A program made the position numbers and the translations under genes. From IMG/VR virus record IMGVR_UViG_2630968808_000005, positions 1 through 11,206 of that record: a stretch of DNA of 11,206 bases; one strand, given 5' to 3'. Positions within the stretch are counted from its first letter, which is position 1; every line of letters starts with the position of its first letter. This DNA is from a virus (Duplodnaviria > Heunggongvirae > Uroviricota > Caudoviricetes). Under the pieces are notes generated by a model. That model saw only the letters and a program-made list of their open reading frames with translations. It ran no database searches and was not told the DNA's origin. Positions 1 to 11,206 of the stretch are shown here, piece by piece.

Positions 1-1383
1 AAAGGCGATTTCGCACAAAATGCAGCTAAAAATGCCGGAGTTAACCTTGCCGCTCAGGGTGTTCTTTCCGCAGCAGCAAAGGGAATAGGGCGTGGAATAA
101 CGGCTATAAAAGGTGATATTGCGCCAGAAGTGGCGAAGAAAATTGCCACATCAGAATCGATGGGCGTGACACCAATGACATCTGATGTTATCCCGCCGAA
201 AAATGCTTTCACTCGCGGCCTTACTCAGGATGCCGAGGGGGCTTTGCTCGGGACGGGCTCAAAGCGAGCAGAGCAATATGCAACGCGGAGTAAGCTGGTA
301 AGCAATTATTTTGACCGTTTTGGTGAGTACAACCCTGATGATGTGGTGAAATCTCTGACCACCACGTTAAGGGGGCGGAAGGATGCCGCTGGCGCTGTTA
401 TCAATGACGTCACCAATAAAATGGGTAATGCCGCAGTTGATACCACAAATACCATGAATGCTCTGAATACAGCGATCGCAAGACAGGAACGGCTTGGGAC
501 GTCTGCCAATCAAAGCCTGCTTACATCCTTGCGTAACCTACGTGAAGAATTAGCAAACCCTGCAACTGATTTGGATGTTACGTTTGATCTCTTGCGTCAG
601 CACAGAACAGCATTTAGATCTAATGTTCAGGGAGATGCTATGGTCTTCCCCAACCAGGCAAAAGCAGCTACCAATATGGTAGAGAATGCAATGTCAAAAG
701 ACCTTCGTAACGCAGTTGCTAAAAACCTCGGTGCATCAGACGCAGCAAAATACCTTAAAGCAAATTCCGATTATGCAAACGTTTATAATAAGGTGCTTAA
801 TAAAAACATTGCCAACAAGCTCAACAAGGCAAGCAGTGAAGCCAGTCCTGAACTTATAAATACCGTTGTATTAAGCAGAAAACCATCTGACGTGAAACGA
901 ATCTGGAGCGCACTGGATGATAAGGGGAAAGAGGCTATGCGTGCAGCTTACGTCAGCAAAATAGCGGAAAAGGCCGGGGACTCTCCAGCCAAGTTCATCA
1001 CTGAAGTTAATAAGCTGAAATCTCAGTCAGGCGGTGAAATTTACAACACTATTTTTTCTGGAAAGCACATGAAAGAGCTTGATGCTCTTCATGAAGTTCT
1101 ACAGCAAACAGCAAGGTCAGACACCGCAAATGTAGTAACTCAGACGGGGCAATCGCAAGCCAACAGGATAAGGACGATTGGCGCAACTGCGACCCTTGGC
1201 GTATCAATGGGGCTTGAGGCTGGTTTTGGTGCAATGATGCGCTTGTATGAGTCCAAAGCAGCAAGGAATATGCTTCTTCGTTTGGCAAACACCAAAGCAG
1301 GAACACCAGCCTATGAAAGAGCGATAAATAACGCTGCGAATGCCATCAGACCGCTGTTTGCTACTGAGGCAACACAGCAGTAA
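1..1383 (+). CDS. Phage DNA ejection/injection protein, P22 gene-16-like (5'-partial; the frame is open from nt 1)
   Basis: Frame 1 has no stop between nt 1 and the TAA at 1381-1383, so the GTG at 130 in the ORF track is only the first in-frame start, not necessarily the real one. The protein is low-complexity and Ala/Lys/Asn/Thr-rich, typical of podovirus ejection proteins. It is the last gene before the immI/sieA slot, where P22 has gene 16. Assignment is by synteny and composition, not verified homology. Confidence 0.5.
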
Positions 1384-1407
1384 CGTATGGGAAATTGGAT
1401 TCAATCG

Positions 1408-1797
1408 CTAACATTTTCTTTTTACTTTTCCAACAAAAGCTTTGGTTGAATCCATATTTCCATAACCGGAAATGGTTTTTGACATTAAAACTGTTCCAGT
1501 AGGATGTATTACCCATGAGTCGATAACGCGTTGAGTTTCGCCATTCGCGCCGATTCCTATGATGGAGTTTTTAGACAATGCTTTGTAAGCCATGCCGCCC
1601 GCATCTGTCCCAGAATATGTGATGCTGGCATCTTCACCGTTTGTCTTAATGATGAATGTTCCACTAAAACCATCTTCTTCCGGATGGAAATTATTTCGTT
1701 CTGAATAGCTTATTCCGCGCATATCTCCAACGACCCAGCACTCTGCTGTAGCCCCAAAAGATATGAATAAGAACATAGCAGTAAGAAATTGCTTCAC
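1408..1797 (-). CDS. Hypothetical secreted/periplasmic protein (129 aa) with an N-terminal signal peptide; function unknown
   Basis: GTG start (plus-strand 1795-1797) preceded on the minus strand by a near-perfect Shine-Dalgarno TAAGGAGGT (plus-strand 1802-1810 complement) with ~5 nt spacing. Hydrophobic N-terminus MKQFLTAMFLFISFGATA followed by a predicted cleavage site before ECW. Two Cys in the mature part, one right after the signal peptide and one as the C-terminal residue. No family recognised. Confidence 0.6.
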   Translation of the reverse strand: MKQFLTAMFLFISFGATAECWVVGDMRGISYSERNNFHPEEDGFSGTFIIKTNGEDASITYSGTDAGGMAYKALSKNSIIGIGANGETQRVIDSWVIHPTGTVLMSKTISGYGNMDSTKAFVGKVKRKC

Positions 1798-1914
1798 GCC
1801 AACCTCCTTAGTTTTGAGCAGGATACCATGAAAAAAGTAAACATCTTTTGCCTACTTCACATTTGAATGGTTTGTCATTAGGATGTTTCCGGTTTTTTAA
1901 ATATGGAAATTGAT

Positions 1915-2334
1915 ATGAAGAGGATTATTGGCGTCGTTGCTGGCGCTATATTGTTATCTGGGTGCGCAACTATTGTTGGTGACGAAACGCAGCTTGTGCA
2001 AGTGAACAGCAATCCTTCCGGTGCGAGCTTTAAGGTAAAAGACGAATCAGGCGTGATTGTTGCGCAAGGTAAGACCCCGCAAGGAGTAACTCTTGCCAAG
2101 TCAGATGGTAGTTATTTTGGCAAAAAGAGCTACCAGATCACTATGGAAAAGGATGGGTACGAACCAGTTACCCTGCCAATCAAAGCCAATGCTAATGGCT
2201 GGTATATTGGTGGAAACCTTGTGTTTGGTGGGTTAATTGGTTGGCTTGCTGTAGATCCTTTTAATGGTGGGATGTATACCTTGAAGCCAAAAGAGGCAAA
2301 CGCATCTCTTATACCATCAACAAAGCAAGACTAA
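1915..2334 (+). CDS. Hypothetical lipoprotein (~139 aa from the ATG at 1915; the ORF track start at 1903 is an alternative) with a PEGA-like beta domain and a C-terminal glycine-zipper hydrophobic segment
   Basis: Signal peptide plus lipobox MKRIIGVVAGAILLSG|C. The middle region (GASFKVKDESGVIVAQGKTPQGVTLAKSDG...YQITMEKDGYEPVTLPIKAN) resembles the PEGA-domain pattern. The C-terminus WYIGGNLVFGGLIGWLAVDPFNGG is Gly-rich and hydrophobic. A hairpin plus T-tract terminator follows directly at 2343-2366. Confidence 0.6.
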   Translation: MKRIIGVVAGAILLSGCATIVGDETQLVQVNSNPSGASFKVKDESGVIVAQGKTPQGVTLAKSDGSYFGKKSYQITMEKDGYEPVTLPIKANANGWYIGGNLVFGGLIGWLAVDPFNGGMYTLKPKEANASLIPSTKQD

Positions 2335-2342
2335 TAAATAGG

Positions 2343-2366
2343 ACCCACCTTCAGGTGGGTTTTTTG
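2343..2366 (+). terminator. Rho-independent terminator after the lipoprotein gene; the mnt stop codon sits in its loop
   Basis: ACCCACC (2343-2349), loop TTCA, GGTGGGT (2354-2360), followed by TTTTT (2361-2365). Confidence 0.65.
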
Positions 2367-2602
2367 TACAAAACCTTCAGCGTATCAAACACCATCTTCT
2401 TAACAAGCTCTGACTGCTCATCAGCGAGTCGTTCTGCATCGTCGCGATATCCAGTCACAGGCGATGGTTTTGATAGAGCATCTTGGACGATTTGTAACAA
2501 CTCGGAGTTCATTGATCTCCCATTCGCCTCCGCCCTGAATTTTAATTTCTCCCTTACTTCCATAGGCATACGGAAGTTAAAGTGCGGATCATCTCTAGCC
2601 AT
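2351..2602 (-). CDS. mnt: Mnt repressor (immI maintenance repressor), 83 aa
   Basis: The translation MARDDPHFNFRMPMEVREKLKFRAEANGRSMNSELLQIVQDALSKPSPVTGYRDDAERLADEQSELVKKMVFDTLKVLYKKPT matches P22 Mnt (ribbon-helix-helix N-terminus plus C-terminal tetramerisation helix) at near identity as I recall it. It is divergent from arc across the operator region. Confidence 0.92.
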   Translation of the reverse strand: MARDDPHFNFRMPMEVREKLKFRAEANGRSMNSELLQIVQDALSKPSPVTGYRDDAERLADEQSELVKKMVFDTLKVLYKKPT

Positions 2603-2624
2603 GCCATCACTCCAAGTTAGTGTA

Positions 2625-2653
2625 TTGACATGATAGAAGCACTCTACTATATT
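2625..2653 (+). promoter_or_regulatory. Pant promoter (-35 TTGACA 2625-2630, 17-bp spacer, -10 TATATT 2648-2653) with the Arc operator (2630-2650) between the hexamers; the divergent Pmnt overlaps it on the minus strand
   Basis: Read directly: TTGACATGATAGAAGCACTCTACTATATT. ATGATAGAAGCACTCTACTAT is the 21-bp Arc operator known from P22. On the minus strand, TTGAGA (plus 2653-2658) and TATCAT (plus 2630-2635) with a 17-bp spacer form a plausible Pmnt. Confidence 0.8.
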
Positions 2654-2657
2654 CTCA

Positions 2658-2678
2658 ATAGGTCCACGGTGGACCTAT
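2658..2678. promoter_or_regulatory. Mnt operator (Omnt), a perfect palindrome centred on the Pant start region
   Basis: ATAGGTCCACGGTGGACCTAT, with symmetric half-sites GGTCCAC/GTGGACC, matches the P22 mnt operator and lies just downstream of the Pant -10. Confidence 0.8.
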
Positions 2679-2692
2679 ATTGTGAGGTGAAT

Positions 2693-2854
2693 ATGAAAGG
2701 AATGAGCAAGATGCCGCAGTTCAATTTGCGGTGGCCTAAAGAAGTATTGGATTTGGTCCGCAAGGTGGCGGAAGAGAATGGTCGGTCTGTTAACTCTGAG
2801 ATTTATCAGAGAGTAATGGAAAGCTTTAAGAAGGAAGGGCGCATTGGCGCGTAA
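2693..2854 (+). CDS. arc: Arc repressor, 53 aa
   Basis: [53 protein letters not shown] is near-identical to P22 Arc as I recall it. The start is the ATG at 2693 preceded by GAGGTG; the upstream 21 codons in the ORF track (from 2630) overlap the operators and promoter and are not coding. Confidence 0.92.
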
Positions 2855-2923
2855 AGTTGAAGCCCCAACTGCGGGAACAGTCAGGGCTTCGGTTGTCAGT
2901 AAATCCGTGGAGAAAAACCAACA
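2855..2923 (-). ncRNA. sar: Probable sar antisense RNA (small antisense regulator of ant translation)
   Basis: In P22, sar is a ~68-nt RNA transcribed leftward from a promoter inside the 5' end of ant, across the ant ribosome-binding site into the arc-ant spacer. Here a minus-strand -10 TATACT (plus 2930-2935) lies at the ant start, and the 69-bp interval back to the arc stop fits that size. Ends are inferred, not mapped. Confidence 0.45.
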
Positions 2924-3825
2924 TGAATAGTATAGCAATTTTAGAAGCAGTGAACACCTCTTATGTACCATTCAACGGTCAGCAAATTATCACCGCCATG
3001 GCTGCCGGAGTTGCATATGTTGCGATGAAGCCAATCGTTGAAAACCTTGGAATGAGCTGGTCAACGCAGCAAACAAAACTCATGAAGCAGATTAGCAAAT
3101 TCAACTGTGTTCATATGAACATGGTTGCCGCTGATGGGAAGCTTCGTAAGCTACTCTGCCTTCCTTTGAAGAAGTTAAATGGATGGCTGTTCAGCATCAA
3201 CCCTGAGAAAGTTCGTGCTGACATCCGTGATAAACTGATTCAGTACCAGGAAGAATGCTTTACTGTACTGCATGACTACTGGACAAAGGGAAAGGCAGAA
3301 AATGCACGTAAGAAAACATCTGTTGATGACAGGACTCCGCTTCGTGATGCTGTAAATATGCTAGTCAGCAAAAAGCATCTAATGTACCCAGAAGCTTATG
3401 CAATGATTCATCAGCGTTTCAATGTGGAAAGTATTGAAGAGCTTGATGCATCTCAGATACCGCAAGCCGTAGAGTACATCCACAGGGTAGTGCTTGAAGG
3501 TGAATTTATCGGCAAACAAGAGAAGAAAACCAACGAGCTTTCTGCAAAAGAAGCAAACAGCCTTGTATGGTTATGGGATTATGCCAACCGCTCACAGGCA
3601 TTATTCCGCGAACTGTATCTGGCGCTAAAACAAATTCAATCGAACTATTCCGGCAGATGCTACGACTATGGCCATGAGTTCTCGTATGTTATCGGAATGG
3701 CGAGAGACGTTTTAATCAATCACACACGAGATGTTGATATTAATGAGCCAGACGGACCAACGAATCTTTCCGCATGGATGAGACTTAAGAATAAAGAATT
3801 ACCTCCTTCAGTACATAACTACTGA
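2923..3825 (+). CDS. ant: Antirepressor Ant, 300 aa
   Basis: ATG at 2923 preceded by GGAG (2909-2912). The position directly downstream of arc, the 300-aa size and the N-terminus [21 protein letters not shown]... match P22 Ant as I recall it. The N-terminal extension from 2857 in the ORF track is rejected. Confidence 0.88.
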
Positions 3826-3842
3826 CAGATAACCAACGCAAC

Positions 3843-3868
3843 GACCCAGCTTCGGCTGGGTTTTTTTA
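3843..3868 (+). terminator. Rho-independent terminator downstream of ant
   Basis: CCCAGC (3845-3850), loop TTCG, GCTGGG (3855-3860), followed by a 7-T run (3861-3867). Confidence 0.7.
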
Positions 3869-3925
3869 TGCCCAAAATTCATCGTAGCCATGCTTCGGTG
3901 ATTCCTTGTATCTGGAGCAAATTAA

Positions 3926-6094
3926 ATGACAGACATTACAGCCAATGTGATCGTATCAATGCCTTCGCAACTCTTCACTATGGCGCGTTCTTTTAAAGCC
4001 GTAGCTAATGGCAAAATTTATATCGGTAAAATTGACACTGACCCGGTAAATCCAGAAAACCAGATTCAGGTTTATGTGGAGAACGAAGACGGCTCTCACG
4101 TTCCTGTTTCGCAACCAATCATCATTAACGCTGCCGGCTATCCGGTATACAACGGACAGGTGTCGAAATTTGTCACCGTTCAGGGCCACAGCATGGCTGT
4201 ATACGATGCGTATGGCGTGCAGCAGTTTTACTACCCTAACGTGCTGAAGTACGACCCGGATCAGTTCAAAACTCAGTTAGAAGCCGCACAAGGGGCGAGC
4301 CTGGTAGGGTATCGCTATAAAGACGCTCCTAACGCTACTGTGCGTAAAGTCTCTGACGTTCTGGACGAGCGTGTAAGCCTTTGGGATTTCCACTGTGACT
4401 CAAGCGGCAACGTCATCCAGCCCGGCCCTAATGTAGACAGTCGTCAATATATTCAGAATGCCATTGATTATCTGAATGCACATGGTGGTGGGACTCTGGT
4501 TATCCCACCAGGGAAGTGGTGGCTGAATTCGTATGGCCGTCCAGAAAAGATTTCCAGCTATGCTGGAGTTATCCAGCTACTCAGTAATGTTGACATCTAC
4601 TTTGAAGCGGGCAGCACCGTCGCTCTGACTACGTTCTTTAATGAAAAAGCGTATTGCGTTTTCTGTGGTTTTAATGGGAACGACCCGGCAACGTCTGCAT
4701 CGCTGAATAACTGCCATATTTATGGTTCGGGCATTATCGACTGCGGGCCTACAAACAAACAACCAATCGGTAGCGCCCTGTGCTACGCCATTGGTACAGG
4801 TAGGTCTTATGATTGTAGCATCCGTGGCATTACCATCACTAATGGAGACCTTACCTGGGCGGCAACTCTGGGCTGGAATGGCTACGGCAATAACACAGTA
4901 GTAGATGGGGTGACGGTAACTAGCTGCAAAAAGACTGATATTGATCGCAACGTGGATCAGTCGTTGTTTTATGTAGGTTGCCCTTATTCTGGTGTCAGAA
5001 ATTGCTACATGAACCCGTCGGCAGATACTGGTTTCGCAAACAGGGTCTCTGCTGGTGTAGAGCTACATCAACATAATACATTCTGCGATAACAATCACAT
5101 GACTGGGTTGATGCGCGGTGTCTATGTGGTTATGCACGGTGCAGAAGCGGCTGGACAAGGTTTGTACATGTACAATATTAGCGTGTGCAATAATACCGCA
5201 AGTGTCGCGGGGCAATTTGTCACCCTGACAGCAGACCAGAAGGTGGCGATCACCCATATACATAACGTGATTATTGCTAATAATATCGCTGTTATTGAAC
5301 CGCCTAAAGATCCAAATCAGGAAATAGGCCGAATATTCGTTAACAGCGAGATGTGGAAGGACACTCCCAGGGACTCTAACACAGAGCGGGTGCTCGTGAC
5401 TGGTAACATTTTCCATTGCCCGATAACTCTGCCAGGGAGCGTCTTCTTTGCTTATAGAATTAGTACCCGTAACTACCAATTCTCAGGGAACATGGTGGAT
5501 GCTCAAAAAATCATGTCAGGGGACGGGCTTGGGGTAACAGATCAACTTGAGCTTCGCAATATCATATGGGATTCATCGAATAGCCTGGGGAACTCATGGC
5601 TCGGCCAGCGGGGTAAAAACACCAACCTATTTGATATTTATGCAGCAGCGGTAGTTAGCTGCCATTTTGATATTACATTGCCGTATGAGGATAGCTCAAT
5701 TGCTCATGTGTTTTACACGCCTGATGGCTGTAGTGTGGATTATACCGTGGTTAAGGTTAATGCTGAGCGAGTGCCGGAGGGCGTCGTAGGTGTAAGGATG
5801 TCTCAAGCAAACCTGGAGAAGGTTTCTAACCATGTGAGTTATCCAGTCACGATTAGCTTCGGAAGTTACGACGCAAATGGCGCTACGTTGTGTTTTAGCG
5901 TAGATACTACATATGGATGGGTAGGTTCTGCTACTGCGATAAGTCACAGTGACAACACAAACATAACGCCTCCTGGTTGTTATGCCGCTACAGAAACCGA
6001 TCAACTTCAAGGAGTGGGTTGGTCGCATACGAGTGGGGCTAAGTCATACAAGCAGAGGGTGCTATTACGTAGCCGATCAACCCTTCCTGTCTAA
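3926..6094 (+). CDS. Tailspike protein, 722 aa: P22-type N-terminal head-binding domain fused to a different beta-helix receptor-binding/depolymerase body
   Basis: Residues 1-~120 ([78 protein letters not shown]...VLKYDPDQF) match the conserved head-binding domain of P22 gp9 and relatives. The remainder does not match the P22 endorhamnosidase as I recall it, and the protein is longer (722 vs 667 aa). GGAG Shine-Dalgarno at 3914-3917. Confidence 0.9.
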
Positions 6095-6146
6095 GGCGTG
6101 ATGGATAGTTTATTGTAGCAGCTTGTTTTACTGAGAATCTTCACGT

Positions 6147-6177
6147 AATAAAAAATCCCCGCTAGGCGGGGATTTTC
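6147..6177. terminator. Bidirectional rho-independent terminator between the convergent tailspike and gtrC genes
   Basis: ATCCCCGC (6155-6162), loop TAG, GCGGGGAT (6166-6173), flanked by AAAAA upstream and TTT downstream; the U-tract is better for the minus-strand (gtrC) transcript. Confidence 0.65.
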
Positions 6178-6194
6178 AATCTTTTATAACACAA

Positions 6195-7658
6195 TTAATT
6201 CATGCAATCTTTTTTGCTAAAATCAACAACTATATTTACCCCTTCATGGTATAGCTTATAGTCTTGATTACTGGTTACTAACTTATAATTGCAAAAGTCC
6301 CTGAGTGAGCTATTGACTATTTCACTATTATACCCAGGGTCCATTTGCTTCAAACCGTTTATTCCCATGTAATAATGCGCCCACATCCAGTTTCCAAAAT
6401 AACTAACTACTAGCCCATTTAGCAATGGGAAATTCTTGGATGAGTTTGTAAGTATGCTTGATCTGGGTGGCTCACCATTAAAAATAATATAGTTTGTATT
6501 GTAATCGAATTCTTTCGTATCTTCTTTTATTGAATCTATTATTTGTTTATCAACAGAGGATTGATGCTTGCTGGAATTAGCATATGCGCATGTAAAAATA
6601 ATCATGTATGCATACATCGGCAGAACAACCAATGACGGTACTTTGCTTTCTTTGCACGCCAGAGTCGCCAGGAATAAGACAAAAAGCAAATAGGAGCCAA
6701 CGCCTATGTACAACCGTGAAAAACCTACCATTGGGTTATCAAGTGGTAAAAGAGATCCTATCGTGGCGACTGGAGTCACAATTATTACAAGTAAAGAAAC
6801 AACAAAAATAAACCAACCAAACTTACCTTTATATCCTCTTAAATACCTATAAGAAATTACCAAAGCGGAAAGTAAGGAGATTGCAATAAGAACTGGCATG
6901 ATGAATTCCCCCATGCCATTAGGTAGTATTACCCCTTCTATATGATAGTAATAGGATTTTAAGTTACTGATTACTGTGTTCAGAAGATCAGCAGAAACCC
7001 TTGGGTGGTTAGCACTGTGAGAGGACTCCAAAGTCAAAGGCAATATCACCTTCATATAGAGAGCCAGCCCTAACAAAGTGCTTAAAACGCGTATAAACGA
7101 TAATTTTATTATTTCAAAAGGAGATGCCAGCTTATAAACATCATAAAAGAATAGCAGAGATGTAAAAATAAGTATTATATTTACAGATGCTTGATATAAA
7201 CACATTACACCAACCACTAAAGCCACCTTAATTAAAAGGTTGATATAATGATTATTTGATAAAGTAAATAAAAAAGAAAAAGACAGAACAGCGGAAAACA
7301 GGATTGTCAGGCTATCAAACCTGTAACTAACAACCTCAACAATAAATGGATTTATTAAAAAAGACAAAGGGAGCAGGAAAAGCCCTTTTTTGTTATTGAA
7401 AAACTCTTTGCCAAATCTATAAAAAACCCATGACAGCATGGCACAAGCAACAAGGAGCGGAGCAGGGGCAATGTCTGCCATTGTGCCACTAAACATAATA
7501 ACAGACATCAATATATCAGACAGAGGACGCCCATCTTCCCACCAAAATCTGTAACCTAGCGTAGACCGCCCAATATCGTCAATGTAATAAATGTTTGCTA
7601 ATATGATGGGGGCCACCAGTAGCAAAATAATGATGAAATATTCCTTTATTTGTTTCAC
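6195..7658 (-). CDS. gtrC: GtrC-type serotype-specific O-antigen glucosyltransferase (polytopic membrane protein, 487 aa); specificity unknown
   Basis: Third gene of the gtr operon, with its start overlapping the gtrB stop (ATGA). Highly hydrophobic with many predicted TM segments and a C-terminal soluble domain. Visibly AT-rich compared with its neighbours, as is usual for gtrC genes. Assignment is by synteny and topology; GtrC proteins share little sequence similarity. Confidence 0.7.
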
Positions 7659-8578
7659 GCTTCATCCCCATTTTTTAAAATATATCTAGGCCTGTTCTTG
7701 GATTCGGTGTAAATCCTCCCGATGTACTCACCAAGCACCCCAATGCCAATAAGTTGTACGCCACCAAGAAACAGAATAGAAACCAGCAATGAGGGGTAGC
7801 CTCGCACCGGATTGCCAAAGGCGATAGTGTCTATAATCATCCATGCACCATAAATGAACGACAGGCCTGCTACCAACAATCCAATATAAGTCCACATGCG
7901 CAGAGGGAAGGTAGAGAAACTGGTTATCCCCTCAAGGGCAAGGTTCCATAACTTCCAGCCATTGAATTTTGAATCACCGGCAATCCTTTCAGCCCTGGTG
8001 TATTCAACGATATCAGTGTTCCCGCCAACCCAGCTAAGAATGCCTTTCATAAAGAGGTTGCGCTCAGGAAGAAGCTTGATGTTTTCCACCACCGCTCGGG
8101 ACATCAGGCGGAAATCACCTACATTCTCCTCAATTTTAGGATTGCTTATTTTATTGTGGAGCTTATAGAACCACTCAGCCGTTTTTCGCTTCAGTCTGCC
8201 ATCCGTTGAGCGGTCAGATCGTTTAGCAAGCACCATGTCAGCACCTGCTAGCCACTTTTCAATCAGATGAGGAATGACCTCAATCGGGTCTTGCAGGTCA
8301 ACATCAATAGGAATAACGGCATCACCTGTTGCATGGTCTAACCCTGCAAACAATGCGGGTTCTTTACCAAAGTTTCGTGTAAATGACAGCGGAACAACTA
8401 GAGGATCTGAAACAGCCAGAGCGTTAATGATTGACTCCGTAGCGTCTTTGCTGCCGTCATTTATGAAAACAATTTCCACTTCGTATGGCTTCAACTCTTC
8501 GAATTCACGTACCGTTTTATAAAAAATTGGTATTGCTTCTTCTTCATTGAAGACAGGAACTACAAGAGATATCTTCAT
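7655..8578 (-). CDS. gtrB: GtrB bactoprenol glucosyltransferase (GT2 family, UDP-glucose:undecaprenyl-phosphate glucosyltransferase), 307 aa
   Basis: N-terminus [20 protein letters not shown], the DxD-type motif in [10 protein letters not shown], and two C-terminal TM helices are typical of GtrB/DPM1-like enzymes. The start overlaps the gtrA stop. Confidence 0.9.
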
Positions 8579-8937
8579 TTCGCATCCCTAAAGACAATGA
8601 ACTTTGAATAGACGAAACCGCACACCAGGCTGATGGCGGAGAAGGTGACAAGAGTGACAATTGGAGGAAGTGAACATCTATCAGCAGCCCATCCAACAGT
8701 AGCACTCAGTGTTCCCATGAACCCGACATATAACATGTAGCGCATCGTTGTAGTTGATGCTTTGAATGTGAATTTTGCATTCGCGAAGAAGCTAAAACTC
8801 ACAGCCACAACAAAACCTGCGAAGTTTGCAAGAGCTTGGTTTGTATGCGCGGCATAGATACAAACACCAAAAACCACCCAGTGTATAAGGGTGTTCAGCA
8901 CTCCAATCGAGGTGTACTTTGCAAATAGCTTTAACAT
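8575..8937 (-). CDS. gtrA: GtrA flippase (small 4-TM membrane protein, 120 aa)
   Basis: 120-aa hydrophobic protein with four predicted TM helices; first gene of the gtrABC operon, with the size and position typical of GtrA. Confidence 0.85.
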
Positions 8938-9649
8938 TTCTTCTATCAGCTAATAATCAAAGGCATGAAGTCTATCATCCAAGTCTCAATCGATCGATAC
9001 TTGCGTTAGTTGATGAGAAAAAACTCTGGCACACAAGGCTTTGCAATGGCTTGCAAGGTTTTGTTTCTATCAGATAGTGGTTAAGGTGGATCACTCCACC
9101 TTTTCATCAAGCCAATCCGCCCACCACTGCATCATTTCTCTGCGCTTAACGTAGTGGATGCATCACTATCACCCTGTAATGGCTTATTACTGGTTTGCAG
9201 ACAGGTAGGCATGAACATATGCCTGCGCATGAAGATGGAACTAGTCCGGATGCGATATTTTTGGTGATCACGTACATCATCAACGAAGTGCGTTATGGTG
9301 AGTTTGATGACTACCCGCTGAAGTGAAAATTGTGTTGTGTACCAAATTGCGTACCAAACTAAAATCACAAATCATGAAACCCTTGTTCATGGCGGTTCTC
9401 AGGGGTGTTGCGCGTAATCGTGAAACAAAAAGGTAGATTGTTGCTTACCGTCATTCATCATTAGGTTAAATCCGTTATTTCTGCTGTCTGCCAGAGTATC
9501 AAATATCACCGTACTAATCAGCTTTAGCGCCACAAGATCATGTCAGATAAAAATGAGAGGGTAGTCACATTTTCTTGCACTTTATTCCAGCCAGTTCATA
9601 AGTATTTCCGTAAAAAGAACAGCTATTTGAAACTCCTGAGGGTTTGCTG

Positions 9650-10816
9650 TTGAAACGCCGACTTATTATTGCTGCTTCTTTGTTCGTTTTTAACTTATCG
9701 TCTGGTTTTGCGGCGGAAAACATTCCTTTTTCACCTCAGCCTCCAGAGATTCATGCCGGGTCCTGGGTACTGATGGATTACACCACCGGACAGATCCTCA
9801 CCGCGGGTAATGAGCATCAACAGCGCAATCCCGCCAGCCTGACAAAGCTGATGACGGGTTATGTCGTGGATCGCGCTATCGATAGTCATCGCATTACGCC
9901 AGACGATATTGTCACCGTGGGGCGCGATGCGTGGGCGAAAGATAATCCGGTGTTTGTCGGTTCTTCACTGATGTTTTTGAAAGAGGGCGATCGCGTATCG
10001 GTACGTGATTTAAGCCGTGGTTTAATTGTGGATTCCGGAAATGACGCTTGTGTTGCACTGGCTGACTATATTGCCGGTGGGCAACGGCAGTTTGTTGAAA
10101 TGATGAACAACTATGCCGAGAAGCTGCATCTCAAGGATACGCATTTTGAAACAGTGCATGGTCTGGATGCACCTGGCCAGCATAGCTCGGCTTATGATTT
10201 AGCTGTGCTTTCTCGCGCTATCATCCACGGCGAGCCCGAGTTTTATCATATGTACAGTGAGAAAAGCCTCACCTGGAACGGTATCACTCAGCAAAACCGT
10301 AACGGGTTATTGTGGGATAAAACCATGAATGTTGACGGCCTGAAAACGGGTCATACTTCTGGTGCCGGGTTTAATCTCATTGCTTCGGCTGTAGATGGGC
10401 AGCGTCGTCTCATTGCAGTGGTAATGGGGGCTGACAGTGCAAAAGGTCGTGAGGAAGAGGCAAGAAAATTACTACGTTGGGGGCAACAAAACTTTACTAC
10501 GGTGCAAATTTTGCACCGTGGGAAAAAGGTCGGAACGGAACGCATCTGGTATGGCGATAAAGAAAATATCGACCTGGGAACGGAACAAGAGTTCTGGATG
10601 GTGCTACCGAAAGCCGAAATTCCACATATCAAAGCCAAATATACCCTTGATGGTAAAGAACTCACCGCGCCAATTAGCGCCCATCAGCGGGTAGGGGAAA
10701 TTGAACTTTACGACCGTGATAAACAGGTGGCGCACTGGCCGCTGGTTACCCTGGAATCTGTCGGGGAAGGCGGCATGTTTTCCCGCCTGAGTGATTATTT
10801 CCACCATAAGGCCTGA
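9650..10816 (+). CDS. dacD: D-alanyl-D-alanine carboxypeptidase DacD (PBP6b), host chromosomal gene
   Basis: Signal peptide, the SxxK active-site motif (ASLTKLMTGY), SGN (DSGND) and KTG (LKTGHTSG) motifs of class-C low-molecular-weight PBPs. The sequence matches E. coli DacD as I recall it. Start chosen as the TTG at 9650 (GAGG at 9638-9641, ~8 nt spacing, 388 aa); the ORF track's TTG at 9644 is the alternative. Confidence 0.9.
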   Translation: MKRRLIIAASLFVFNLSSGFAAENIPFSPQPPEIHAGSWVLMDYTTGQILTAGNEHQQRNPASLTKLMTGYVVDRAIDSHRITPDDIVTVGRDAWAKDNPVFVGSSLMFLKEGDRVSVRDLSRGLIVDSGNDACVALADYIAGGQRQFVEMMNNYAEKLHLKDTHFETVHGLDAPGQHSSAYDLAVLSRAIIHGEPEFYHMYSEKSLTWNGITQQNRNGLLWDKTMNVDGLKTGHTSGAGFNLIASAVDGQRRLIAVVMGADSAKGREEEARKLLRWGQQNFTTVQILHRGKKVGTERIWYGDKENIDLGTEQEFWMVLPKAEIPHIKAKYTLDGKELTAPISAHQRVGEIELYDRDKQVAHWPLVTLESVGEGGMFSRLSDYFHHKA

Positions 10817-10900
10817 CCTTTCTTTTGCAGCAGACTGGCAGGAGTGCGAGTCTGCTCGCATAATCAACACTCATTCCTTGTGGTTTTAATATTGCAACTA

Positions 10901-10920
10901 TACTGTATATAAAAACAGTA
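10901..10920. promoter_or_regulatory. LexA box (SOS operator) in the sbmC promoter
   Basis: TACTGTATATAAAAACAGTA is a near-consensus CTGT-N8-ACAG LexA site, 15 nt upstream of the sbmC start; sbmC is a known SOS-regulated gene. Confidence 0.8.
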
Positions 10921-10934
10921 TTAATGGAGGCGTC

Positions 10935-11206
10935 ATGAACTACGAGATTAAGCAGGAAGATAAACGTACCGTTGCAGGTTTCCATCTCGTTGGCCCGTGG
11001 GAACAGACGGTAAAGAAAGGTTTTGAGCAGTTGATGATGTGGGTAGATAGCAAAAATATTGTGCCGAAGGAATGGGTTGCTGTCTATTACGACAATCCAG
11101 ATGAAACACCCGCCGAAAAATTACGCTGCGACACCGTCGTGACGGTGCCGGGTTACTTTACGCTTCCCGAAAACAGTGAGGGCGTCATTCTGACAGAAAT
11201 TTCAGG
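10935..11206 (+). CDS. sbmC: DNA gyrase inhibitor SbmC/GyrI (3'-partial; runs off the window end)
   Basis: [72 protein letters not shown]... matches E. coli SbmC as I recall it. GGAGG Shine-Dalgarno at 10926-10930. Conserved synteny dacD -> sbmC. Confidence 0.9.

Follow-up and report, generated by a model that had tools for sequence, protein, structure and literature searches.

A predicted secreted Hex-family protein in the sieA slot of a P22-like prophage: a candidate envelope-level excluder of superinfecting phages

Layout of the prophage end

The DNA analysed here, referred to below as the window, comprises 11,206 nucleotides (IMG/VR record IMGVR_UViG_2630968808_000005, positions 1 to 11,206) and represents the right end of a P22-like (Lederbergvirus) prophage plus the adjoining chromosomal DNA (11.2 kb in all); our main subject is a short open reading frame (ORF) within it, designated ORF-A, which encodes a predicted secreted protein related to the Hex protein of phage 434. 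The genes and features of the window follow one another in the order gene 16, ORF-A, ORF-B, immI, tailspike, gtrABC, attR and dacD. Both the order and the orientation are those of P22 (16-sieA-orf59a-mnt-arc-ant-9-gtrC-gtrB-gtrA-int), except that sieA and orf59a are replaced by ORF-A and ORF-B; no coding capacity for SieA, orf59a, an hkcB-like or a Rap1a-like protein was found in the window. The left edge (1..1383, plus strand) is occupied by the 3' two-thirds of a gene for a gene 16-type DNA-ejection (DNA transfer) protein, the final late-operon gene ahead of the moron region, which in a tblastn comparison is 73% identical to residues 154-609 of P22 gp16 over positions 1-1380 and matches phrog_770 at 8e-176. 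The closest phage DNA matches are to epsilon34 (95% over 1795-4269) and P22 (90% over immI), and copies of the same arrangement are present next to dacD in complete E. coli genomes, none of them covering ≥80% of the window.

This layout is already known. The stretch from gene 16 to the tailspike was named the "ant moron" in the 2008 paper on the epsilon34 genome, where ten types were recognized in sixteen genomes, genes 14 and 15 of epsilon34 were labelled as being of unknown function, and the region was described as having no role in morphogenesis or lysis (PMC2629481). A first-pass annotation of the window, made from the sequence alone, had described positions 1384-8937 as three stacked anti-superinfection modules, namely a cassette of exported proteins, immI and gtrABC, and had taken their density as a reason to place the cassette in a phage-exclusion context. 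All the features it listed were recovered at the same positions or a few bases away, the gene calls lie far beyond chance, and the tailspike (Pfam Head_binding, 3.5e-66) is indeed the only virion gene inside this interval. The density itself is not unusual: to find lysogen functions clustered in this arm of the genome is textbook for the group, the arrangement is ordinary for P22-like phages, with no special concentration of modules, and, because P22-like prophages are built in this way, a three-module layout teaches nothing new. Nor are there three modules, since the interval resolves into four separate units, gtrABC, immI, ORF-A and ORF-B.

A predicted secreted relative of phage 434 Hex

ORF-A (1408-1797, minus strand) encodes 129 amino acids from a GTG start codon that is preceded, at a distance of 5 nt, by the strong Shine-Dalgarno sequence AAGGAGG. 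The gene lies 24 bp beyond the stop codon of gene 16 and is convergent with it, which is the slot and the orientation of sieA. Lying antisense to the late operon, ORF-A needs a promoter of its own; on inspection of the sequence, the divergent intergenic region between ORF-A and ORF-B (1798-1914) contains a possible extended -10 element on the minus strand, TGGTATCCT, as a putative promoter site. No terminator was seen after ORF-A in the terminator scan. The protein matches phrog_2651 (2.9e-61), has cysteines at positions 20 and 129, and begins with a predicted signal peptide, MKQFLTAMFLFISFGATA, a leader of the signal peptidase I type that is followed by the residues ECW.

When phage genomes were searched with ORF-A using tblastn, full-length matches of 27% were found directly downstream of cI in phages 434, Sf6 (gene 38), HK446, HK633 and Sf101, where the ORF is annotated as "repressor protection protein". 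The ORF of phage 434, read from its 5'-most ATG, is the Hex ORF of 158 amino acids that Shkilnyj et al. described (PMC3564112); their numbering of Glu43 and Asn103 fits it exactly. ORF-A and 434 Hex are aligned over their full length by BLASTP (27% identity, 3e-12), the ORF-A family profile matches 434 Hex with an hhalign probability of 99.8% and an E-value of 1.8e-28, and Hex, like ORF-A, matches phrog_2651 (1.4e-58). By all of these comparisons, ORF-A is a full-length Hex-family homologue and a new member of a poorly understood family. Hex stands for heterologous exclusion and, in the summary given of the original genetics, Salmonella lysogens of lambda imm434 exclude P22 whereas hex-minus lysogens do not (PMC3564112, citing Susskind and Botstein 1980); in lysogens, hex is co-transcribed with cI from PRM (PMC3564112). 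Membership in the Hex family therefore relates ORF-A to a gene that has been genetically tied to the exclusion of P22, and it does so in the slot that normally holds SieA, which blocks injection specifically in P22-like phages.

The Salmonella P22-like phages Emek and ST-35 carry ORF-A at 96-97% identity, and the GenBank record of Emek already notes the likeness of its orthologue to Sf6 gene 38; no link of ORF-A family orthologues to Hex or to exclusion was found in the literature searched. An exhaustive search of representative sequences yielded 89 clusters of relatives, typically of about 125-135 amino acids, and a word-indexed search returned close relatives only. ORF-A belongs to no Pfam or NCBIfam family, no Pfam model, including MliC/PliC, was matched at E≤0.01 by any of 52 relatives, and sequence searches of the PDB with the family profiles of ORF-A and ORF-B gave nothing meaningful. 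Three very large multi-domain proteins (with Big_1, Calx-beta and Big_3_5 domains) were also matched by ORF-A, but these matches look compositional and were dropped, and epsilon34 gp14 (hkcB-like, phrog_5962), which is 17% identical and falls in a different PHROG, was rejected as a relative. The family has other genomic settings as well. A member in Vibrio parahaemolyticus resides in a long, superintegron-like array of small cassettes on the same strand that encode acetyltransferases, NUDIX proteins and a T6SS_Tdi1_C immunity protein, and one in Microbulbifer lies in an element with an integrase and a terminase.

Signals of secretion recur across the family. In 70 of 81 members, the N-terminus has a hydrophobic stretch and then a pair of residues consisting of Cys and an aromatic amino acid, Ala occupies position -1 in 55 of the 76 members that could be scored, Ala, Ser or Val predominate at position -3, and 79 of 81 members have a Cys within the final 14 residues. 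The only invariant columns of the alignment are Cys20 and Gly123, and Cys129 is nearly so. AlphaFold2, run with 52 sequences, folds ORF-A into a β-barrel of 8-9 strands (pLDDT 94.1), the first and last of which bear the two cysteines. A Foldseek search of BFVD with this model gave no match at E≤0.001. The combination of signal peptide, cysteine pair and barrel model leads us to predict that ORF-A is a Sec-exported, disulfide-bonded periplasmic protein.

The published biochemistry of Hex can be revisited in this light. Over-expression of full-length Hex halted growth, and the sole fragment that could be recovered, sHex, began at Glu43 (PMC3564112). Glu43 is the residue immediately after the predicted signal-peptidase site of 434 Hex, between ANS and ECW, and sHex (residues 43-103) spans only the first half of the barrel. 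The text of the paper makes no mention of signal peptides, the periplasm or membranes (PMC3564112).

ORF-B, an independent moron

The neighbouring gene, ORF-B (1915-2334, plus strand), encodes a lipoprotein of 139 amino acids and is the orthologue of epsilon34 gene 15, the product of which (gp15) is 97.8% identical. An ATG at 1903 is probably not the start, as homologues begin at MKK. The lipobox, LLSGC, contains Cys17 and is followed by Ala at +2, which according to the +2 rule indicates a lipoprotein of the outer-membrane type. A promoter-like site, TTCACA-17-TAGGAT at 1856-1884, matches at 9/12 positions, within the chance level for the region. The family comprises 728 clusters, and the lipobox Cys is invariant; the structural model consists of a β-sandwich of the PEGA/transthyretin type and, after it, a hydrophobic helix that is Gly-rich and conserved (NGWYIGGN-x3-GG-x2-G), and a structure search returned generic sandwiches only. 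No characterised ORF-B-like lipoprotein was found in the literature search. Homology to the exclusion lipoprotein Cor was considered and rejected, since the match to the Cor family phrog_1119 covers only residues 5-24, that is, the signal peptide and the lipobox (E 0.0036).

Relatives of ORF-B are found at two different positions in the tail modules of siphoviral prophages: between the genes for the tail assembly chaperone and the tape measure in prophages of E. coli ED1a and Proteus, and just before the gpJ-like tail-tip gene in the contigs examined for a cluster of the Pseudescherichia vulneris type. In ED1a, a porin moron is located a few genes away from the ORF-B relative.

The exported-protein genes had been annotated as one cassette, which does not agree with their distribution. 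Part of the segment 1384-2345 is carried by 311 of 5,426 complete E. coli genomes, of which only 45 carry ORF-A and ORF-B together. The partial matches end at about 1748-1905, mostly in the intergenic region 1798-1914 (query positions 365-461 for the ORF-A part and 406-522 for the ORF-B part), so that most recombination breakpoints that part the two genes fall within this region. The partners are exchanged in named phages as well. In a prophage of E. coli strain 2-1, integrated at the same attachment (att) site, ORF-A is next to a gene for a "Rap1a/Tai family immunity protein" (RefSeq; phrog_3870) in the place of ORF-B, in epsilon34 the ORF-B orthologue stands beside the unrelated hkcB-like gene, and in phage Gally ORF-B has yet another unrelated neighbour. 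The Gally neighbour lies in the sieA slot; it was considered as a possible SieA and rejected. Altogether, the opposite-strand slot after gene 16 holds at least four unrelated families, those of sieA (phrog_7745), ORF-A (phrog_2651), the hkcB-like gene (phrog_5962) and phrog_6067. Being divergently transcribed and assorting independently, ORF-A and ORF-B do not form one cassette; they are two independent morons that show presence/absence polymorphism among syntenic phages. The Rap1a/Tai gene of strain 2-1 would represent an orphan immunity gene of the type VI secretion system (T6SS) kind inside a P22-like ant moron.

Immunity region, tailspike, gtr operon and attachment site

The immI region is of the P22 type and complete, with Mnt, the divergent arc-ant genes, sar across the arc-ant junction and the operators all present. 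It is separated from ORF-B by a bidirectional intrinsic terminator (2343-2360) that was detected in the terminator scan and has an annotated equivalent in epsilon34. The maintenance repressor of Pant, Mnt, is encoded on the minus strand at 2351-2602 (Pfam Arc PF03869, 4.1e-30; Repressor_Mnt PF11423, 1.2e-17) and is 96% identical to its P22 counterpart; arc (2693-2854, plus strand; Pfam Arc, 2.7e-30) and ant, the antirepressor gene (2923-3825, plus strand; P22_AR_N, 3.3e-45; P22_AR_C, 2.6e-28), encode proteins 98% and 86% identical to those of P22. The true starts of the two latter genes are 2693 and 2923, and the longer ORFs called mechanically are not the genes. The antisense RNA sar (2855-2922, minus strand) matches Rfam RF00262 over model positions 1-68 of 68 with 95.6 bits, the gathering score being 43, and an E-value of 5.4e-20. 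Overlapping divergent promoters, Pant (TTGACA-17-TATATT) and Pmnt, were located at 2625-2681 by the promoter scan with 11/12 and 10/12 matches, and the surrounding operator region (2595-2700) is identical to that of P22 at 105 of 106 positions, one base being different. On the established picture of P22, the Arc operator occupies 2630-2650 and the Mnt operator 2660-2676. A strong intrinsic terminator, annotated likewise in epsilon34, follows ant (3843-3862; terminator scan).

In this arrangement, Mnt made by the prophage would repress Pant, and Arc and the sar RNA would limit Ant during infection; a superinfecting phage that shares the operators would therefore be unable to express the antirepressor and induce the lysogen. 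Mnt silences the ant gene of the prophage and likewise that of an incoming phage whose operators are the same, and Ant is an anti-immunity function. The first-pass annotation was right in recognizing the mnt/arc/sar/ant immunity control, while its reading of the region as an anti-superinfection layer is not supported: judged by near-identity to P22, immI is immunity maintenance rather than exclusion.

The tailspike gene (3926-6094, plus strand; Pfam Head_binding, as above, and HK620_9_C, 1.5e-15) combines a conserved head-binding domain with a divergent receptor-binding domain (4286-6091). The latter is unrelated to the receptor-binding domain of P22, and its nearest match among the tailspikes of sequenced phages, that of HK620, is only 41% identical. 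In O111 strains that have the same pair of ORF-A and ORF-B, the tailspike is a different one and a frameshifted acyltransferase gene is found in place of gtrABC. A strong bidirectional terminator with an 11-bp stem (6152-6176; terminator scan) lies between the tailspike and gtrC.

The gtr genes form one operon on the minus strand, transcribed in the order A-B-C with 4-bp overlaps between neighbours. The putative flippase gene gtrA (8575-8937; GtrA_DPMS_TM PF04138, 1.8e-13) and gtrB, for the bactoprenol-phosphate glucosyltransferase (7655-8578; Glycos_transf_2 PF00535, 1.9e-30), encode proteins 79% and 89% identical to those of P22, whereas the product of the serotype-specific glucosyltransferase gene of the gtrC type (6195-7658; Glucos_trans_II PF14264, 3.1e-16; GtrC-like phrog_4829, 1.1e-84) is only 26% identical to P22 GtrC. 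The G+C content of gtrC, 0.33-0.39, compares with 0.42-0.49 for gtrA/gtrB and the tailspike, and together with the disparity in identity to P22 (26% versus 79-89%) it is consistent with a replacement of the specificity gene alone. GtrB would place glucose on bactoprenol phosphate, GtrA would flip the product, and the divergent GtrC would transfer the glucose to the O-antigen, a modification expected to alter the receptor that is bound and cleaved by tailspike-bearing phages. By domain content and by homology, then, gtrABC is a genuine layer of O-antigen glucosylation and receptor modification, just as had been annotated.

The regulatory region upstream of the gtr genes (8938-9150, minus strand), as aligned with those of P22 and of the E. 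coli 2-1 prophage, lacks about 87 bp that in P22 hold three of the four GATC sites; the sites left upstream of gtrA are TATCGATCGAT (at about 8990) and one more distal GATC (at about 9090), and the 2-1 prophage has the same short form. In P22, a phase-variation switch governed by Dam and OxyR and comprising four GATC sites has been outlined upstream of gtr (PMC2909390). With most of this switch missing, gtr expression is probably not phase-variable in the manner of P22; the switch is not universal among gtr operons, and its absence leaves the assignment of gtrABC intact.

The end of the prophage is marked by attR (9194-9442), an attachment-site repeat of the "2851 type" that matches the annotated attP of mEp234 and ends of Shiga toxin (Stx) phages annotated as "duplication due to insertion"; homology to prophage-free K-12 begins at window position 9413, and dacD follows at 9644-10816 (NCBIfam equivalog, 4.7e-256). 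The repeat is common to Stx phages 1717 and 2851 and to mEp234, and the locus is sbcB-dacD, from which it follows that this prophage uses the site of Stx-converting lambdoid phages. The att site contains no tRNA gene, and it differs from thrW, the integration site of P22.

Envelope exclusion and its alternatives

Homology to Hex and the secretion signals of ORF-A can be regarded as established at the level of sequence; from them, and from the position of the gene, we infer its expression in lysogens, its phenotype and its target. ORF-A would be exported through Sec, cleaved after ATA and closed by a disulfide into a periplasmic β-barrel. Made in the lysogen, it may block superinfecting P22-like phages at an envelope step, the likeliest target being the formation or operation of the conduit of gp7, gp20 and gp16 through which DNA is delivered, and it could thereby replace SieA, an inner-membrane protein, in function while residing in the periplasm. 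The gp16 encoded next to it is, as noted, 73% identical to that of P22, and mutations enabling escape from SieA map in gp16 (PMC10883804). In our view, the interval probably represents the usual accessory right arm of P22-like prophages, here at a 2851-type att site beside dacD; it would consist of four separate units, with ORF-A as an envelope excluder. A broader proposal, that 434 Hex, Sf6 gp38 and ORF-A are all Sec-exported periplasmic barrels that exclude P22-like phages at the envelope, at the conduit or at another periplasmic step, from both the cI operon and the sieA slot, with the published RecA/repressor mechanism reduced to a side effect, or to an artefact of using a leaderless half-barrel, can be advanced only tentatively.

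Several observations weigh against exclusion by ORF-A at the envelope. No gene of the window is matched by the PADLOC models. An identity of only 27% to 434 Hex means that specificity, and even phenotype, may differ, and both the assignment of hex to its ORF and the exclusion of P22 rest on a single paper's account of a 1980 study. The promoter-like sites of 1798-1914 do not exceed chance, the promoter scan having given 13 promoter-like sites with 19.6 expected in shuffled sequences. The barrel is a generic fold with no informative structural neighbour, and the family also has a member in the Vibrio cassette array, adjacent to a T6SS immunity gene. A cytoplasmic activity of Hex has been reported, as RecA-stimulated cleavage of the repressor is inhibited and a leaderless fragment complements in trans (PMC3564112), and neither the recA-dependent destabilisation of lysogens nor the partial trans-complementation is explained by action at the envelope. 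For ORF-B, close relatives occupy ordinary chromosomal loci in Enterobacter and Kosakonia; since the family is thus found outside prophages too, it is best viewed as a cellular envelope lipoprotein that has been repeatedly captured by phages. The exclusion context suggested earlier for both exported proteins is accordingly retained for ORF-A, a Hex homologue in the sieA slot, and not for ORF-B, which would be an independently acquired moron with a role either in receptor masking, in the manner of Cor and Llp, or in host fitness.

The published view of Hex provides the most direct alternative, in which ORF-A, as a member of the same family, would remain in the cytoplasm, protect a repressor of the C2/434 type from RecA-stimulated autocleavage and stabilise lysogeny, with no exclusion at the envelope. 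When hex is deleted, spontaneous induction increases about 30-fold, an effect that depends on recA; leaderless sHex partly complements the deletion in trans and prevents the repressors of 434 and P22 from being cleaved in vitro (PMC3564112). A cytoplasmic protein is, however, difficult to reconcile with a conserved signal peptide of the Sec type, an AxA-like cleavage site and a near-invariant pair of cysteines, one at either end of the mature protein; in the confidently predicted structure the barrel is closed and sHex makes up just its first half, and this fragment starts exactly at the predicted signal-peptidase site in a study that never considered export. Moreover, some family members, such as that of the Vibrio cassette array, have no lambdoid repressor nearby. 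We therefore favour envelope-level exclusion by ORF-A and Hex over a cytoplasmic mechanism, and regard repressor protection as the function of ORF-A as quite improbable.

Two further explanations depart from phage exclusion altogether. Both exported proteins might be morons that benefit the host or serve interbacterial competition, ORF-A as a periplasmic inhibitor or immunity protein and ORF-B as a lipoprotein that stabilises the outer membrane or confers resistance of the serum-resistance type. The T6SS_Tdi1_C immunity gene that adjoins the V. parahaemolyticus relative of ORF-A and the Rap1a/Tai immunity gene that takes the place of ORF-B in further E. coli prophages integrated at this att site are the reason for keeping periplasmic protection against non-phage attack as a rival, and the chromosomal loci of ORF-B relatives in Enterobacter and Kosakonia point the same way. 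Against this stand the phage phenotype of 434 Hex, the one member with genetics, the placement of the phage ORF-A family at the two classical sites of exclusion genes, downstream of cI and at the sieA position, and the lack of a match at E≤0.01 to any Pfam family, the MliC/PliC lysozyme inhibitors included; prophage copies of ORF-B, for their part, recur within tail or ejection modules, as do Cor and Llp. On balance such a role appears rather unlikely, though less so than repressor protection. A virion or assembly function for ORF-A and ORF-B is suggested by their location between gene 16 and the tailspike and by the position of ORF-B on the strand of the late operon. P22 and most P22-like phages have neither gene and fill the slot with unrelated ones; the strand of ORF-A is opposite to that of the late operon, both proteins bear export signals, and the region has been described as devoid of morphogenetic or lytic functions (PMC2629481); we consider this explanation extremely improbable.

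If envelope exclusion by ORF-A is true, a new periplasmic class of injection blockers would be recognized and an exclusion phenotype known for 45 years would be clarified. Independently of that outcome, a gene so far labelled hypothetical, which a few percent of complete E. coli genomes carry entirely or in part, can now be placed in the Hex family, and the family-wide signal peptide and terminal cysteine pair are in testable conflict with the sole mechanistic paper on Hex.

Comparison with known systems

The systems expressed from the P22 prophage against superinfection are c2, gtrABC, sieA and sieB (PMC10883804), and of these ORF-A can be compared with SieA. The two share slot and orientation, both are located in the envelope (ORF-A by prediction), and both are proposed to act against incoming P22-like phages. 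They differ in that SieA is a multi-pass inner-membrane protein (phrog_7745), whereas ORF-A is a predicted soluble periplasmic β-barrel (phrog_2651). The SieA family comprises types A-C with the motif FxRYPxEAxxFNK (PMC10883804), and a tblastn search with P22 type A, types B and C not having been queried, gave no match in the window at E≤1. Epsilon34 is syntenic with the accessory arm of the window and has the flanking terminator and immI in common with it at 95% DNA identity.

Among exclusion lipoproteins, Cor (phi80/N15/HK022) and Llp (T5) resemble ORF-B in being small and of the outer-membrane type, although their mature domains are unrelated to it and the ORF-B family extends beyond prophages. 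Cor and Llp are also encoded in tail or ejection modules, which recalls the placement of the ORF-B relatives. With 434 Hex, finally, ORF-A shares a start composed of a signal peptide, one residue and Cys-Trp, a C-terminal Cys, a length of about 130 amino acids and the same PHROG. The genetic settings differ, Hex of 434 and Sf6 being encoded downstream of cI in the PRM operon and ORF-A between gene 16 and ORF-B/mnt, opposite to the late operon, and the mechanism published for Hex is cytoplasmic, unlike the periplasmic location predicted for ORF-A.

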